Below, piece after piece: positions 2,207 to 54,742 of a DNA stretch of 64,000 nt. Origin of the DNA: Sphyrna mokarran (lineage: Eukaryota). Below the pieces are notes generated by a model. The model ran no database searches and was not told the DNA's origin. It saw only the letters and a program-made list of their open reading frames with translations. The stretch is from assembly GCA_024679065.1 (NCBI GenBank), contig JAGIQG010000006.1, positions 8,432,001 to 8,496,000 of the forward strand. Direction: 5' to 3'. The position numbers and the translations under genes were made by a program. The first letter of the stretch is position 1. Each line of letters starts with the position of its first letter.

Positions 2207-2711
2207 CTAAAAAACAAGGCCTGCTGAATCTTTGCTTCTTCCACTCATCAGCACAGACACAAGAATACCAGATTTCAAACAGAACAACAATTTATAATGG
2301 AGGAAAAGAAGGATTCTGATTGGTTGAAGATTGTGTAAGACATATCTTTAATGGATTGATGATTGACAGTGAAATTTGCTGTATTTATGCTTTGCCGATT
2401 GTCCGTTGCCACAGTGGGCAGGAAAGATTGTACCCAATGTTTCAAAACATGAGATTTTGTTCGTAATTTCTTCATTTGGCCGTTGTTTGGTAAATTTGGT
2501 TATTTTGGTTTAACTTTGACACATGGGTTTATAAGACAAAGTTATTCAGGGCCACTGTAACAATTTGGTTTTTGGATACAGATCAGCCAGGCTCTGATTG
2601 AAAAAGTGAACAGACCCGAGGGGCTGAATGGCCTCCTCCACAAAAACTCACAGATTTCACAATATTACCATTAATCCTTCGCAGCAGTCACATTTTTATT
2701 GTGAAACTTAC

Positions 2712-3086
2712 CTACTGTCAACATCCAAATACTAAAACAAATTATAAAATATAAGATCAGTAAAAGAACCCGCACAACATAGGAAACAATAGTGGACATG
2801 TCCTTGTCTTCAGCGATGAGGTGGATCTGACGGACGTCTCTCCCGAGTTCATTTACAGCCACACAGCTGTATGTCCCTCTCAGTATTGGGTTACGAAACT
2901 CTCCTGTGATTTGATGCTTGTCTGCCTCTTGTGTGACTGTTGTGTCAGGGCTGTTCCCGGACACTGAGCTGCCCTCAGGATCGATCCATGTGATATTGGC
3001 AGGTGGCACCGCTTTAACCCGGCACACGATGCTCTCTCCAGTTACATCATCGCTCACTGTCGACAGATTCAAGATGGTGGCTGGGA
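2712..3086 (-). CDS. Ig C2-set plus transmembrane exon of the same Siglec-15-like receptor
   Basis: 375-nt phase-1/phase-1 exon; acceptor tttccttccccaag|TCCCA, donor GTAG|gtaagt; in frame with the V exon (..LQVV-VPATILNLS..). Motifs CRVKAVPPANITW and GTYSCVAVNELG, then hydrophobic IVSYVVRVLLLILYFIICFSIWML. Confidence 0.88.
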
Positions 3087-7033: not shown

Positions 7034-7399
7034 CAACAACCTGGAGTCCCATCACATCCTGAGTTACATTTTCCTGATTCCTGTTCCTGACGTGTACGTG
7101 ACAGAAATAATCATCGGTGTCGTTCAGCTGCAGGTTCCTCATCCTGAGGGAAGCGTTTCCTTGGGTTGGGTTTCCAATCAGTTCATATTGATCTCCTTCA
7201 TTCACAGTGACTGTGTCAGTGTAGTCAGAACCAGCCCCCAGGGAATGAGAGTAATTAAAAACAGTGGAAAATTTTTTTTGATGCCTCTTCATCCAGAGGA
7301 CAGTGAGGGAGCTGAGAGAACGCAGAGGGGGATTGAAGGTGCAAGACAGAGTGACAGAATCTCCCTTCACCCCAGTCACTGCCCGTGAATCGTTCTGAC
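7034..7399 (-). CDS. Ig V-set exon of a Siglec-15-like receptor
   Basis: Open phase-1/phase-1 exon of 366 nt; acceptor ccctccctcag|GTCAG, donor GTTG|gtaag. Peptide GDSVTLSCTFNPP..LTVLW..LIGNPTQGNASLRMRNLQLNDTDDYFCHV has the canonical V-set C, W and DxxxYxC. It parallels Siglec-15 as recalled (CTFTHP, LTAIW, LLGNPR, DDRRYFCRV). Confidence 0.88.
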
Positions 7400-7884
7400 C
7401 TGAGGGAGGGAGGATTTGAAAGAACAGATATTAATTATCATGTAGTTTTATTAAATGTAATCTCTACAATGTTTATCTACCCTGTGATATCCCTAAAGAC
7501 AGATAACACCGACCTAGATTTATACAAATACCTGGAAGTTAATGTTCCCTTCAGGAAATGAAGTTGGAAAAGTGCTGAGATCTTGGAGGGAAATTGCTTT
7601 GGAGGATGTGACAGCACTGAGATAGAAAAGGCCATGGAGGGATTTAAAGAGCAGGATGATGATGTTAAATAATGAGGAAATGGGTCTTGTTCCTCTGGAG
7701 AGGATTTCCTTCCGGGTCTGATGGACAATGTGATTGGTGGGATGAAAATGGATTGTGCTGGTGGCTTTTGGGACAGCATTGGGATAAAACCATGGATAAG
7801 TTATCTCAGCCTGCCCGTACTAGACAGAGACATACTCCCATTACTCTCAATATCTACAACTGTCCCCCTCATGGGATAGCATGG

Positions 7885-8140: not shown

Positions 8141-9844
8141 CTTTAATTAAATTCACAGCAGGCAGGGCCCAGGCATTCACAAAGATGGAAATCTCAGTCT
8201 TGTACTTTCCCATTTCAAATCCATTTTACTCCAGAGAGCAGGTTAGTGAAGGAGGATCCAGGTTCTAATCTTAGTCTTATATTTAATTACCGAGTCAATA
8301 ATTACAAACAAATATATCCAAACTCAACTGCACAGTTATAGAAAATATGTTTGAAAGGTGTTCAGGAAAAGCCACTCTTTGCATATCATTAAACAGAACT
8401 ATATCCAATTAGGAAATTAAATCCTCATTAAATCCGCTGTGATGTGCTCCTTAGGTGGGTTGGCCATGTTAAATTGTCCCGTAGTGACTTAAAAAGTTTC
8501 ATGAATAACAATCCTTCCACCATGCCAACAAATATAGCCCTTAACTAGCAATTAGTGTTGATATAAGGACCTTATCCCTTCTCCATTGTTATTAATCCAG
8601 TGGTGGGCTGAGGAGAGGCTTGTAACAAAATCCAAAAAGCAAACACTTCCCATGTTATCCAATGTGTGCTTCCCCCCTTGTAACTCATAAACCTTTGTGA
8701 TAACCCCTGCGAGGTCTATGGGAAAGCATTGATTGACCTCTCTGTGGGACTCATTGAGTATGAGTTCCCCTGGTAACAGGCAGTGCCCATCTATTCCTGA
8801 GGCTTGTATAAGGCAGGCCTTGGACTGGGCCTGCTGATTTGCAGTCCCTGGCAGGACCTAGTGGTTTGGAGATGTCTGATTGGGGCTTCATTACACTCTG
8901 GATTTGTTGTACCTGCTGCTGCCAGACTGGGAGCTGAGAGTTACTGGAGAGGGAAGTTGCTGCTTGGACAGAGAGAGAGAGAGGCCCCGAGGCCTGGAGG
9001 CTCACAGGCCTCACAGCCTTGGATATATTCAATGATTCAGCTTCCACTGCTGTCTGGGGAGGTGAATTCTACAAACAAATGACCCTCAGAGGGAAGTTCC
9101 TGTGCACCTCCATCTTAAACTGGAGACCCTTATTCTGAAACTCTGGCCCCTCGTTCGAGATGCGGGAAAAAACTTCCTCTCAGCATCTATATGTCAGGCT
9201 CACGCAGATTCTAATATGTTTCAAGAAGATACCTTTCAATATTCTAAACTCCAAAGTTATCGACACAATCTGCTCGACCTTTCCCCAAAAGACCAACTGC
9301 TGAACCCCAGAATCAGCCCAGTGAATCTTTCTGGAACCTTCTTTGCGTCTGGAGTCACATGTAGGCCAGGCTGGGTAAGGAAGGCAGATTTCTTTCTCTA
9401 AAGGATATGAGTGAATCAGATGGGTTTTTACGATAATCAGTCTAGTCATCACTTGAGTTTTATTTCCAGATTTTTATTTAAAAATAGTGCAACTTATAAA
9501 TGTTGATGTTCATGGACTTGGGGGTGCTCACATTGGGAACACAGAAAGTTAGTGTAAGACCCACAAGCATTTCCTTTATTCATCAGAGACCAAAGTCTCT
9601 GACAGTGCGAGAGTAACTTCTCTCTTTCCATACTCTATATATCAACTAATAACATGAAAGTTTCCCATATACCTTCGCAATGATCTTATACCCCGGGCGA
9701 TCTGATTTATCCTCTCATTGTAGTATCTTATGTTTGAGGGTTTTCATTTACTGCATTGTAAAATGTTCTTATTTGCAAAGGAAGCTAAAGCAAATACACA
9801 AATCTAACAACACACATCCTTAACAATTCTTCTGATCCTATATC

Positions 9845-10392: not shown

Positions 10393-10444
10393 TATATTTT
10401 GCTGAGCTGGTCAGTGTGAGTGTACACAGCATGATCCACAGCAT
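10393..10444 (-). CDS. candidate signal-peptide exon (MLWIMLCTLTLTSSAKY)
   Basis: Hydrophobic ATG-initiated peptide in non-repeat DNA upstream of the V exon. The only nearby donor (at|gtattt) is weak and phase 2, so it would need an intervening exon. Confidence 0.25.
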
Positions 10445-44645: not shown

Positions 44646-46670
44646 ACATAGAACATAGAACATTACAGCGCAGTACAGGCCCTTCGGCCCTCGATGTTGC
44701 GCCAGCCAGTGGACCCTCTAACCTAAACTATTCCAATATCATCCATATGCCTATCCACCGAACATTTGAATGCCCCCAAAGTAGGCGAGTCCACAACTGC
44801 TGCAGGCAGGGCATTCCACGCCCTCACCACCCTCTGTGTAAAGAACCTGCCTCTGACATCCGTCCTATAACTACCACCTCTTAATTTAAAGTTATGTCCC
44901 CTCGTGTTGGTCATCACCATCCGAGGAAAAAGGCTCTCACTATCCACCCTATCCAATCCCTTGATCATCTTATACGCCTCAATTAGGTCACCGCGTAACC
45001 TTCTTCTCTCTAATGAAAATAACCTCAGGTCCCTCAGCCTTTCCTCATAAGGCCTTCCCACCATACCAGGCAACATCCTGGTAAACCTCCTCTGCACCCT
45101 TTCCAATGCTTCCACATCTTTCTTATAATGCAGCGACCAGAACTGTACGCAATACTCCAAGTGCGGCCGCACCAGAGTTTTGTACAGTTGTAACATAACC
45201 TCACGGCTCCTAAATTCAATCCCTCTACCAATGAAAGCTAACACACCGTACGCCTTCTTAACAACTTTATCAACCTGGGTGCCAACTTTCAAAGAGCTAT
45301 GTACTTGTATCCTAAGATCCCTCTGCTCGACAACACTATTAAGAGTCCTTCCATTAGCCCTATATTTCATATGCCTGTTATTCCTACCAAAGTGAATCAC
45401 CTCACACTTATCCGTATTGAATTCCATTTGCCACCTCACGGCCCAGCTCTGCAACCTATCTATGTCCCTCTGCAAACTGTAACATCCATCCTCGCTGTCT
45501 ACAACTCCCCCCACTTTGGTATCATCAGCAAATTTACTAATCCAACCCTCTACACCCTCATCTAGGTCATTTATAAAAATGACAAACAGCAGTGGCCCTA
45601 AAACAGATCCTTGAGGTACACCACTTGTAACTGCACTCCAGGTTGAATATTTCCCATCAACCACCACCCTCTGTCTTCTATCAGCTAGCCAATTCCTAAT
45701 CCAAACTGCTAAATCACCTTCAATCCCATGCATCTGCACTTTCTGCAGTAGCCTACCATGGGGAACCTTATCAAACGCTTTGCTAAAATCCATATACACT
45801 ACATCAACTGCCTTACCCTTATCTACCTCTTTGGTCACCTCCTCAAAAAACTCAATAAGGTTTGTGAGGCACGACCTACCCTTCACAAAACCGTGCTGAC
45901 TATCCCTAATCAATTTATTTCTCTCTAGATGCTTATAAATCCTATCCCTTATAATTCTTTCCAAGACCTTGCCCACAACAGAAGTCAGGCTCACTGGTCT
46001 ATAATTTCCAGGATGGTCCCTACTCCCCTTTTTTGAACAAAGGGACAACATTTGCCATCCTCCAGTCTTCCGGCACTATACCTGTAGCCAACGACGACAT
46101 GAAGATCAAAGCCAAAGGCTCTGCAATCTCCTCTCTAGCCTCCCAGAGAATCCTAGGGTAAATCCCATCTGGCCCAGGGGACTTATCAATTTTCATACCC
46201 TCAAGATTCGCTAACACCTCCTCCTTATGAACCTCAATCCTACCCAGTCTACAACCTGGTATCGCAGTATTCTCCCCGACAACATTGTCTTTCTCCTGCG
46301 TGAATACTGACGAAAAATACTCATTCAGTGTCTCTCCTATATCCTCAGGCTCCACGCACAACTTCCCACTGCTATCTCTGACTGGCCCTAATCTTGCCCT
46401 AACCAATCTTTTATTATTTATACACCTGTAAAAAGCTTTAGGATTCTCCTTAATCCTATCCGCCAAAGTCATCTCGTGTCCTCTTCTAGCTCTTCTCAAC
46501 TCCCTCTTTAGCTCCTTCCTGGCTAATTTATAGCTCTCCAGTGCCCTAACTGAGTCTTCACGTCTCATCATTATATAAGCCTCCTTCTTCCTCTTCACCA
46601 GAGATTCAACTTCCCTAGTACACCATGGTTCCCTCACTCGACCACTTCCTCCCTGCCTGGCAGGTACATA
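44646..46670 (-). mobile_element. 5'-truncated young CR1 (HER1-like) LINE with near-intact ORF2 RT
   Basis: ORFs 46020-46700 and 44723-46051 are joined by one frameshift at a homopolymer. Motifs NYRPVSLTS, QHGF, DFSKAFDKVPH, GVPQGSVLGP, SKFADDTK; (TTCTATG)n tail. Confidence 0.95.
44723..46051 (-). CDS. CR1 ORF2 reverse transcriptase (transposon-encoded, truncated)
   Basis: 442-aa uninterrupted ORF carrying the non-LTR RT motifs. Confidence 0.85.
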   Translation of the reverse strand: MLSLCSKKGSRDHPGNYRPVSLTSVVGKVLERIIRDRIYKHLERNKLIRDSQHGFVKGRSCLTNLIEFFEEVTKEVDKGKAVDVVYMDFSKAFDKVPHGRLLQKVQMHGIEGDLAVWIRNWLADRRQRVVVDGKYSTWSAVTSGVPQGSVLGPLLFVIFINDLDEGVEGWISKFADDTKVGGVVDSEDGCYSLQRDIDRLQSWAVRWQMEFNTDKCEVIHFGRNNRHMKYRANGRTLNSVVEQRDLRIQVHSSLKVGTQVDKVVKKAYGVLAFIGRGIEFRSREVMLQLYKTLVRPHLEYCVQFWSLHYKKDVEALERVQRRFTRMLPGMVGRPYEERLRDLRLFSLERRRLRGDLIEAYKMIKGLDRVDSESLFPRMVMTNTRGHNFKLRGGSYRTDVRGRFFTQRVVRAWNALPAAVVDSPTLGAFKCSVDRHMDDIGIV

Positions 46671-52539: not shown

Positions 52540-54138
52540 TTTTTTTTTAAGCAACACAGCACGGGAAACAGGCCCTTCGGCCCAACGAGCCCGCGCCGCC
52601 GTCATACCAAATACATTATCCTATTTTAATATTCCTATATAATAATATATATATTATTCCTAATATGGAAAATTTTCACCATAGGGACAATTTGTTACCA
52701 AATCAGCCTAAGAGCGAATTTTTGGGTTGTGGGAGGAAACCGGAGTGCCCGGAGAAAACCCACGCAACCACAGGGAGAACGCGCAAACTCCCGCAGACAC
52801 CGGCCCCATTCCAAGTGTCTGCACAGCCACATCGATAGTCTCTGAGCTGTCATGGTGACCTTCAGATGGTCCACATAAAGCACTCATTTACGACATGAAG
52901 TACCAGGCAACCCATGAATCAACATCCAAGAGCTGTACCCGCACCACCTGCCGAATGCGTGCTCAAATTATGGACCGAATTACCTGTGGAAAAAAGCCGT
53001 AGTTAAACAGTCCTAATATATCCCTCTATCTGCATACCGTTCATGTGGCTGTCCAAGAGACCCTTAAACAGCCCCAGCGTGCCTGCTCCCACCACCTTAC
53101 TCGGCAGTGCATTCCACACCCCCCCTACCCTTTGTGTGAAAAACTGCCCTCTAATATTCGTCCTATACATAGCCCCCCTCACCCTATGGCCATGACCCCT
53201 CGTCCTATCCATTTCTAAGGTGGAAAAAGTTTACCTCCATTTACTCTATCTATACCCCTTATAATCTTATACACCTCTATGAGATCCCCTCTAAGCCGAC
53301 GTCTTTCAAAGGAAAACAACCCCAGTCTATCTAATCGTTCCTCATAGGACAGTCCTTCCATACCAGGCAGCATCCTGGTAAACCTCCTCTGCACTCTCTC
53401 CGAGGACTCCACATCCTTCCGATAGTACGGAGACCAGAACTGGGCGCAGTATTCCAAGTGAGGCCTAACCAAAGTTGTATACAACTGCAACATCAAACTC
53501 CTATTCTTGTATTCTATACCCTTTTCCATGAAAGCTAACATACTATACGCCTTTTTTATCACCTTCTCCACCTGTGAGGACACCTTCAGAGACTTGTGAA
53601 CCTGCACCCCCAAGTCTCTCTGCGTCTCTATGCTCTGTATAGTTTTACCTTTTATCCTATAATTTTCTTCTACATTTTTCCGGCCAAAATGCATCACCTC
53701 GCATTTTTCCGGATTAAATTCCATTTGCCATCTATCTGCCCAATCTACCAACCTGTCTATGTCCTGTTGTATTGCCTGACACTGCTCTTCTGTCCCCGCC
53801 AATCCAAGCATCTTGGTGTCATCAGCAAATTTGCTGATCTCACCACCTACCCCTACTTCCAAGTCGTTTATGTAGACCACAAATAGAAGAGGACCTAGTA
53901 CTGAGCCTTGTGGCACTCCACTAGTGACAGGCTTCCAGCCGGAAAAAGAGCCTTCCACTACTACCCCCTGTCTCCTCCTCCCGAGCCAGTTCTCGACCCA
54001 TCTACATACCCGACCCTGTATCCCATGCGCCTTCACCTTCTCTATCAGTCTACCATGAGGAACCTTGTCAAACGCCTTACTGAAATCCATGTAGACGACA
54101 TCAAGAGCCTGTCCTTCATCAACTGTTTTTGTCACTTT
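52540..54138 (-). mobile_element. young CR1 with long 3' UTR, inserted into a Gypsy integrase
   Basis: RT ORF 53215-54138 plus frameshifted C-terminus 53003-53212; about 460 nt CpG-retaining 3' UTR. Confidence 0.92.
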
Positions 54139-54742
54139 TCTTTGCCATAGAGGCCATTCCCATGGTGGAATAGTGTTAGCAGGTTCCGAACTTTTGCACA
54201 AAACAGTCACATTCCCACCTTTTCCTCAATTTTGGCATCGAGTCCCAGCCACCAAAAATAGCTGGATAGTAGCTTTGACAAAGCACTGTCTGGATTCAAA
54301 ACATCAGGTCTTCCTCTCCTTACAGATGCTGCCAGACCTGCTGAGATTTTCCAGCATTTTCTCTTTTGGTATCAAAAATAGCTCTGGCTATCTCACCATA
54401 GCACAGCGAGCTTTGTGTAGTCGGTTTAGTACACATTTCCTCAATAATGGTAGAATGATGATGATCCCAAAGGAGACACCTGCCTGTATAGATAGTTCAT
54501 GTCTCCGAGTGAAATATGCTTTTAACTCAGGGTTTGCTCCTATTGTCTTGCCACAAAGAACCATGTCCTTGACTTCCTGACAGTGTTGGATCATTTCAGC
54601 TTTGCTTCCTCCCTTGGCCTGTGGTTACAGAAGTACTATCTATTTGCTCGAAGTAGAAAATGTTTCCACACAAACTGTTTATTGACGGTAATCGAGAGAG
54701 TCCATCAGCATTTCCATGCAGGTCTGACTGTCACTACTTCGT

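Follow-up and report, generated by a model that had tools for sequence, protein, structure and literature searches.

The window analyzed here is a 64,000-nucleotide stretch of the Sphyrna mokarran genome (contig C1215:8432001-8496000), and the cluster coordinates on C1215 given below refer to the same contig. The minus strand of the window carries one copy of a gene with immunoglobulin (Ig) exons, the parts of which are listed here.

10396..10444, minus strand: leader (signal peptide) exon of 49 nt, sharing 98% identity with the leader exons of five siblings, with donor AT at 10395-10394, not the GT of all five siblings
9015..9019, no strand: deletion junction with 5-nt microhomology, at which comparison with siblings shows 4.2-6.2 kb of sequence including the Arg-bearing V1 exon to be missing
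7034..7399, minus strand: V-set exon, the second V domain (D2) of the family, with Cys19, Cys99, and five N-glycosylation sequons
7098..7100, minus strand: codon of His100, at the site of Siglec-15 R143 by alignment
2712..3086, minus strand: C2 and transmembrane (TM) exon of 375 nt, open, without the Lys motif, with a phase-1 GT donor; X5 record 25 contains its junction with the V exon
2671..2711, minus strand: read-through past the TM donor, giving a 13-residue tail without a Tyr motif and then a stop; its presumed use is based on X3 record 20 from a related organism
2347..2352, minus strand: putative polyadenylation hexamer, from sequence

The 11500-64000 part of the window contains no further Ig exon. 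Long open reading frames, such as those at 44726-46075 and 53218-54225 (minus), are presumably fragments of LINE reverse transcriptases, and we take the segment 58810-59592 to be a Penelope-like piece.

The V-set exon (7399-7034 in the direction of reading) is 366 nt long, has phase 1 at both ends, an open frame, and AG/GT borders (CAG acceptor, GTAAGA donor), and its product matches the Pfam V-set family with an E of 3.9e-18. An earlier sequence-only reading of this DNA described an F strand of DDYFCHVHV and only two canonical cysteines, and both descriptions are accurate: the His100 codon (CAC at 7100-7098) immediately follows that of Cys99, and Cys19 is the only other cysteine. In the comparison with PDB sequences, His100 aligns with R143 of Siglec-15, which together with W44 and Y154 forms the sialic-acid contacts of that protein, as described in the available text of PMC10264397. 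The aromatic contacts on strands A and G that correspond to W44 and Y154 are absent as well, since the domain has no Trp and no G-strand aromatic residue. The same reading pointed to the lack of the extra C'-C'' disulfide pair of Siglec-15 (C95-C104 type); the pair is indeed missing from D2, but it is also missing from the Arg-bearing V1 of the siblings and is thus not peculiar to this domain.

The histidine is genuine. It occupies this position in all seven D2 exons of the Sphyrna mokarran genome and in 15 of 17 D2 rows from other species, chimaera included, the exceptions being whale shark (Arg) and one Mobula protein (Cys); the 17 rows are those of a 39-row alignment chosen as D2 of this class, and some species contribute two rows. 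This recurrence rules out a sequencing error as the source of the His, and judging from the same distribution the D2 His is older than the chimaera/shark split. Other positions are conserved across the 17 rows to a similar degree: Lys/Arg37 and His/Trp102 in 17 each, and Gln113 and Asp114 in 15 each, as is His100. These residues leave room for a binding surface of D2's own.

Taken alone, D2 is not diagnostic of Siglec-15. In the PDB search Siglec-15 gives the top single-domain score (34.2 bits), with B7-H4 close behind at 32.0, and B7-H3 comes first when the list is ranked by whole-chain score. The AlphaFold model of D2 (39 rows, pLDDT 90) has a plain V fold, similar to that of Siglec-15 (Z 15.5, rmsd 2.5, 113 aligned), but nectin-1 ties with it (Z 15.6), and fold searches with the model do not separate Siglec-15 from the V domains of nectin-1, CAR, and Nav beta4. 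The model of a full-length ortholog (6 rows) was poor, with a pLDDT of 59.5, and was left out of the analysis.

The remainder of the cluster, and related exons elsewhere in the genome, are as follows.

C1215:8335494-8299232, minus strand: complete inhibitory (ITIM) gene; D1 carries Arg, and several Tyr motifs lie in the five tail exons (69, 69, 69, and 72 nt plus a terminal exon)
C1215:8206875-8226785 (L040, L007, L039), plus strand: TM-Lys gene, intact-looking leader-V1-V2-C2-TM without a tail, with His at the Arg site of D1 and of D2
C1215:8265396-8292859 (L008), plus strand: single V-C2 gene with a short tail, without a TM Lys or the extra Cys pair, annotated as Siglec-15 in other species
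C1215:7.236-7.239 Mb, 8.013-8.030 Mb, and 8.090-8.095 Mb (L073, L074, L075, L053, L052): second V-V group, the V1 of which keeps the extra Cys pair of Siglec-15
C1215:8383993-8402840 and 8417152-8426224: duplicated blocks in the array, of 18.9 kb (99.4%) and 9.1 kb (99.6%)
C960:15.159-15.192 Mb (L069-L072): duplicated V-exon pairs (YFCRVET and YFCCVET) without Siglec-15 hallmarks, presumably PILR-like
C668:1.97-2.84 Mb: further V-exon cluster with weak similarity to frog Siglec-15, possibly other Siglec-like genes

The genome search finds seven close copies of the V-set exon (89-100%) within 221 kb, six of which are preceded by a further V exon in the 464 kb of contig mapped. In all five tandem siblings and in the TM-Lys gene, the V1 exon lies 2.2-5.0 kb upstream of the V2 exon, and every border is in phase 1. 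The order D1-D2 recurs in annotated proteins of Mustelus, Cetorhinus, Heterodontus, Chiloscyllium, Heptranchias, Mobula, Narcine, Amblyraja, and Callorhinchus. The domain, which had been read as N-terminal, is therefore the second V domain in five of five siblings and in annotated shark, ray, and chimaera orthologs, and comes first only in the deleted window copy.

The V1 domains identify the family. Those of the five tandem siblings (two of them identical) all read C-R-M-E-L, with Arg at the strand-F position that is His100 in D2. The sibling V1 matches 11 PDB sequences, all of them Siglecs, with Siglec-15 best at 64.9 bits and CD33 at about 29.5. At the positions of Siglec-15 W44, R143, and Y154 it has Trp, Arg, and Phe/Tyr, and Y87 is without an equivalent. 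The earlier assignment of the gene to the relatives of Siglec-15 is thereby upheld, through D1. The proposal that His100 marks a receptor that has lost sialic-acid binding fails for the same reason: the contact residues are kept in the sibling D1, which scores 64.9 bits against Siglec-15 compared with 34.2 for D2.

A tree of 66 V domains, built on 127 columns with many forks open from the named or clearly Siglec-15-like rows out of 133 cut, places the window domain among 19 D2 rows (94/67, not starred), apart from 13 D1 rows (98/97, starred). In matches to the C2 exon Siglec-15 ranks 7th of 12. When frog Siglec-15 is compared with the Sphyrna mokarran genome, the best 11 matches are on the contig of the window, nine of them in the cluster or within 130 kb of it. 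Members of the urea transporter and ATP synthase alpha C-terminal families are neighbors of SIGLEC15 in bony vertebrates. Two further neighbors, DLIC and YL1_C, are known from teleosts, according to the accessible part of PMC7862078. Because all four neighbor families map to other contigs, the proposed orthology of the shark family to Siglec-15 rests on sequence and not on gene position. A search of 80 kb on one side of the urea-transporter genes gave no match to a separate one-to-one Siglec-15.

The reading's suggestion of a lineage-specific shark receptor family is consistent with these results, in the wider form of an expansion in cartilaginous fishes with annotated proteins in sharks, rays, and a chimaera. 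The literature searched, mostly outside the subscription journals, gave no description of the shark family; in the text of the whale shark genome paper Siglecs are mentioned a single time and without particulars. Models from lungfish and chimaera (P0027, P0034, P0170) show that multiplication of V domains recurs in this lineage: Arg-bearing V domains of Siglec-15-like type number seven and two in the lungfish models, and the chimaera model has three D1 repeats.

ITIM-bearing and charged-TM types with related ectodomains are present in the one cluster, and both types also occur among annotated proteins. The tail exons of the ITIM gene carry LDYAVI, SVYSNV, and a terminal VIYATV, match the tails of Heptranchias and Heterodontus proteins, and occur once in 464 kb, only after the last gene of the array (8.320-8.299 Mb). 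The TM-Lys gene, 210 kb from the window copy and on the opposite strand, is orthologous to P0001-P0004. Among the seven TM-Lys proteins with a full D1 (three models without one were left out), Arg is kept in two (Mustelus and Callorhinchus) and replaced by Leu in four and by His in Sphyrna mokarran. Named proteins without the Lys motif have the D1 Arg in five of seven cases, to which the five of five siblings of this genome are added. Going by its D1 sequence, the TM-Lys gene is the real Arg-less Siglec-15-like receptor of the cluster, and the idea of such a receptor in the sequence-only reading fits this gene.

The single V-C2 gene sits between the TM-Lys and ITIM genes, and its Arg is retained in all 14 of the relatives from sharks and rays. 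The three copies of the second V-V group differ at the Arg site, with Arg, Gln, and Cys, and V2 has Leu. The 18.9-kb and 9.1-kb blocks are either very recent duplications or assembly redundancy. Pairs of tandem-copy V1 exons differ by 3-9 non-synonymous and no synonymous changes; the differences are too few for a claim of positive selection.

The V and C2/TM frames of the window copy and their splice sites are undamaged, and the TM Lys is absent; an Arg near the start of the helix is Gln in two of four such copies. The gene as a whole is not the intact, spliceable one that had been proposed. Up to position 9019 the sequence corresponds to the V1-V2 intron of the siblings, and from 9015 to their leader-V1 intron. 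No V1 remnant with an E better than 0.54 is present in the readable window and 50 kb beyond it. Displacement of V1 upstream was rejected, as no such exon appears in that region or in the genome search, and the junction lies in readable sequence, outside the one masked stretch of the window. The change in the leader donor, 1.4 kb from the junction, is a second lesion independent of the deletion. Seven alternative GT/GC donors near the leader are weak; the sole in-phase GT scores 1 of 8 and would leave a signal peptide of six residues. The complete sibling has five tail exons, and neither scans for their motifs nor tblastn searches using four annotated tails as queries detected any of them after the window copy. 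The region upstream is 92-95% identical to the siblings, compared with about 97% among them. Three of the five tail-less units are broken (the window copy, one with a frameshift in C2, and one without C2), and two have no visible lesion. The lost V1, the AT leader donor, and the missing tail exons make it likely that the window copy is non-functional, a partial duplicate of the cluster's inhibitory gene.

Evidence on splicing comes from four of the seven listed runs; it consists of contigs only, none recorded as RNA, so that their RNA status is a guess. X1 record 8 covers 7034-7401 with one differing letter; its match to the genome breaks off at the two ends of the exon, and 104 and 42 of its letters are unplaced. 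Other copies of the exon in the assembly differ from the window copy by 7-19 letters, and an allele or copy with a near-identical exon therefore seems to be spliced in another sample, which suggests that the lesions may be specific to an allele or to the assembly. The two letters of this record past the acceptor (AG) fit the end of V1 and not that of the leader, which supports the D2 status of the domain. X1 record 3 covers 2758-2913 with one difference. In contigs of related organisms, the V exon is joined exactly to C2 (X5 record 25), and 2941-2303 is read straight through the TM donor (X3 record 20).

Of the alternatives to a dead duplicate, one has an appreciable though small chance of being correct, namely that the lesions occur only in the haplotype that was sequenced or are assembly errors, and that the copy elsewhere is a complete V1-V2-C2-TM gene with the 13-residue tail, encoding a non-signaling decoy. 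The one-difference, apparently spliced X1 contigs would fit such a gene, as would the two tail-less siblings without a visible lesion, the read-through at the TM donor seen in X3 as well as in models P0006, P0033, and P0035, and the 9-19 kb blocks of 99.4-99.6% identity, which mark a young or hard-to-assemble array. However, the microhomology at the junction is only 5 nt, the donor change is independent of it, the upstream region is more divergent than those of the siblings are from one another, and conversion can place a near-identical D2 in another copy.

It is improbable that the window encodes an intact V-C2 receptor for another ligand, whose sole V domain has the Arg-to-His change and in which the loss of V1 was a functional remodeling. 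Since leader, V, and C2/TM are all in phase 1, the V-C2-TM frame would be open without V1; His100 and its surface neighbors are conserved, a near-identical, apparently spliced contig exists in X1, and a full D1 is likewise missing from gene models P0005 and P0025, which come from other species. Against this stand the AT leader donor with its weak substitutes, the missing tail exons, and X1 record 8, whose two letters past the acceptor match a V1 end and which has, among the matches listed, none on the leader.

Still less credible is an arrangement like that of clustered protocadherins, in which cassettes with their own promoters would share one 3' set of ITIM exons by long-range splicing. The frame of the one tail-exon set fits the TM donors (phase 1, GT), and Mobula model P0021 has two cassettes before one tail, but such a splice would have to span as much as 115 kb and pass over numerous strong acceptors of phase 1, three of the five cassettes are broken, and X3 record 20 passes through the TM donor. 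Membership in a non-Siglec family (B7, nectin/CAR, or MDIR/CD300) has the smallest probability of all and is, for the gene, largely refuted: the whole-chain rank of B7-H3, the fold ties of D2 with nectin-1 and CAR, and a midpoint tree that sets D2 beside TIM-like rows are outweighed by the top single-domain score of Siglec-15, the Siglec-only matches of the D1 partner, the location of the frog Siglec-15 matches, and the description of skate MDIRs as CD300/TREM/pIgR-like in the available part of PMC3031540. The PDB matches listed for D1 and D2 include no CD300, TREM, or pIgR. The D2 domain itself would be either a duplicate of D1 or a captured exon.

The explanation that is, as a whole, quite probably correct is that the exon encodes D2 of a Siglec-15-related V1-V2-C2-TM family with a D1 lectin and paired signaling, and that the window copy is a likely non-functional duplicate. 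Between the ITIM and TM-Lys genes, DNA identity is 94.5% in D2 and 95.6% in C2, compared with 71% in the leader, 68% in D1, and 53% in the TM exon, and the tracts of high identity stop near the exon borders. The dS values are 0.78 for D1, 0.049 for D2, and 0.080 for C2, and the amino-acid identities are 52%, 88%, and 93%, respectively. In the tree the TM-Lys D1 domains, those of Mobula and of sharks alike, cluster together (98/90, starred), whereas the window D2 pairs with the TM-Lys D2 of its own genome (98/85, starred). From the low dS of D2 and C2, the high dS of D1, and the pairing in the tree, we infer that gene conversion between these opposing receptors has homogenized D2 and C2 and spared D1.

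Intact members of the family would bind sialic acid through the Arg, Trp, and Tyr/Phe of D1, with D2 serving as a non-lectin spacer or packing domain. Their motifs suggest that the ITIM gene inhibits through SHP-type phosphatases and that the TM-Lys gene activates through a DAP12-type adaptor, a role of the TM Lys in adaptor pairing being described in the available text of PMC7226832. The tail-less tandem copies, the window copy among them, may have arisen by unequal crossing-over in a process of birth and death, and conversion would keep D2 and C2, and not D1, alike between opposing receptors.

The family D1 has human Siglec-15 (PDB 7zoz; PMC10264397) as its best match among PDB sequences, C2-TM follows the V domains in both, and the activating member has a TM Lys, as do the Siglec-15 proteins of frog, coelacanth, and lungfish. 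It differs from Siglec-15 in the additional His-bearing V domain (V-V-C2 compared with one V and one C2), in the lack of a C95-C104-type Cys pair and of Y87 in D1, in its organization as a multigene cluster with ITIM-bearing and tail-less members, and apparently, to judge from the four neighbor families, in its gene neighborhood. Primate Siglec-12, after which NCBI names two shark members, also has tandem V-set domains, with binding attributed to the first, according to the accessible parts of PMC6288428 and PMC7379906. However, Siglec-12 is CD33-related, and the shark D1 is nearer to Siglec-15 than to CD33 and is accompanied by one C2 domain. The paired primate Siglec-5/14 and Siglec-11/16 resemble the shark cluster in having adjacent inhibitory and Lys-bearing activating genes, conversion, and frequent null copies; as far as the available text of the same two papers describes them, conversion in the primate pairs keeps the ligand-binding ectodomains alike, whereas in the shark family it affects D2 and C2, and the Arg-bearing D1 is divergent. 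Arg-to-His changes in ape Siglec-5/14 and evolution of paired Siglecs by ectodomain conversion are known (PMC6288428, PMC7379906, PMC11343606, each in the part available). Three features appear to set the shark family apart from known Siglecs: its origin from Siglec-15, an ancient D2 that carries His, and gene conversion that does not extend to D1.

A more speculative proposal, to which we give roughly a one-in-several chance, is that Siglec-15 became a paired family in cartilaginous fishes in which the exposed face of D2 (Lys37, His100, His/Trp102, Gln113, and Asp114) binds a protein ligand or partner common to both receptor types. Conversion would keep D2 alike as D1 diverges, so that the inhibitory receptor would read sialic acid together with the ligand, and the Arg-less activating receptor would respond to the ligand where sialic acid is absent. 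This would be the opposite of the arrangement in the primate pairs.

The flagged copy itself carries little weight, and an inner V domain without Arg does not prevent a Siglec from binding. The family to which it belongs is of wider relevance. Siglec-15 has been described as one activating receptor with a V-C2 plan, yet chimaera, sharks, and rays appear to have activating, inhibitory, and tail-less V-V-C2 relatives of it, and the activating gene has lost its D1 Arg more than once. The family would date paired Siglec signaling earlier than the mammalian CD33-related cluster, and it may serve as a natural test of what gene conversion preserves in paired receptors.
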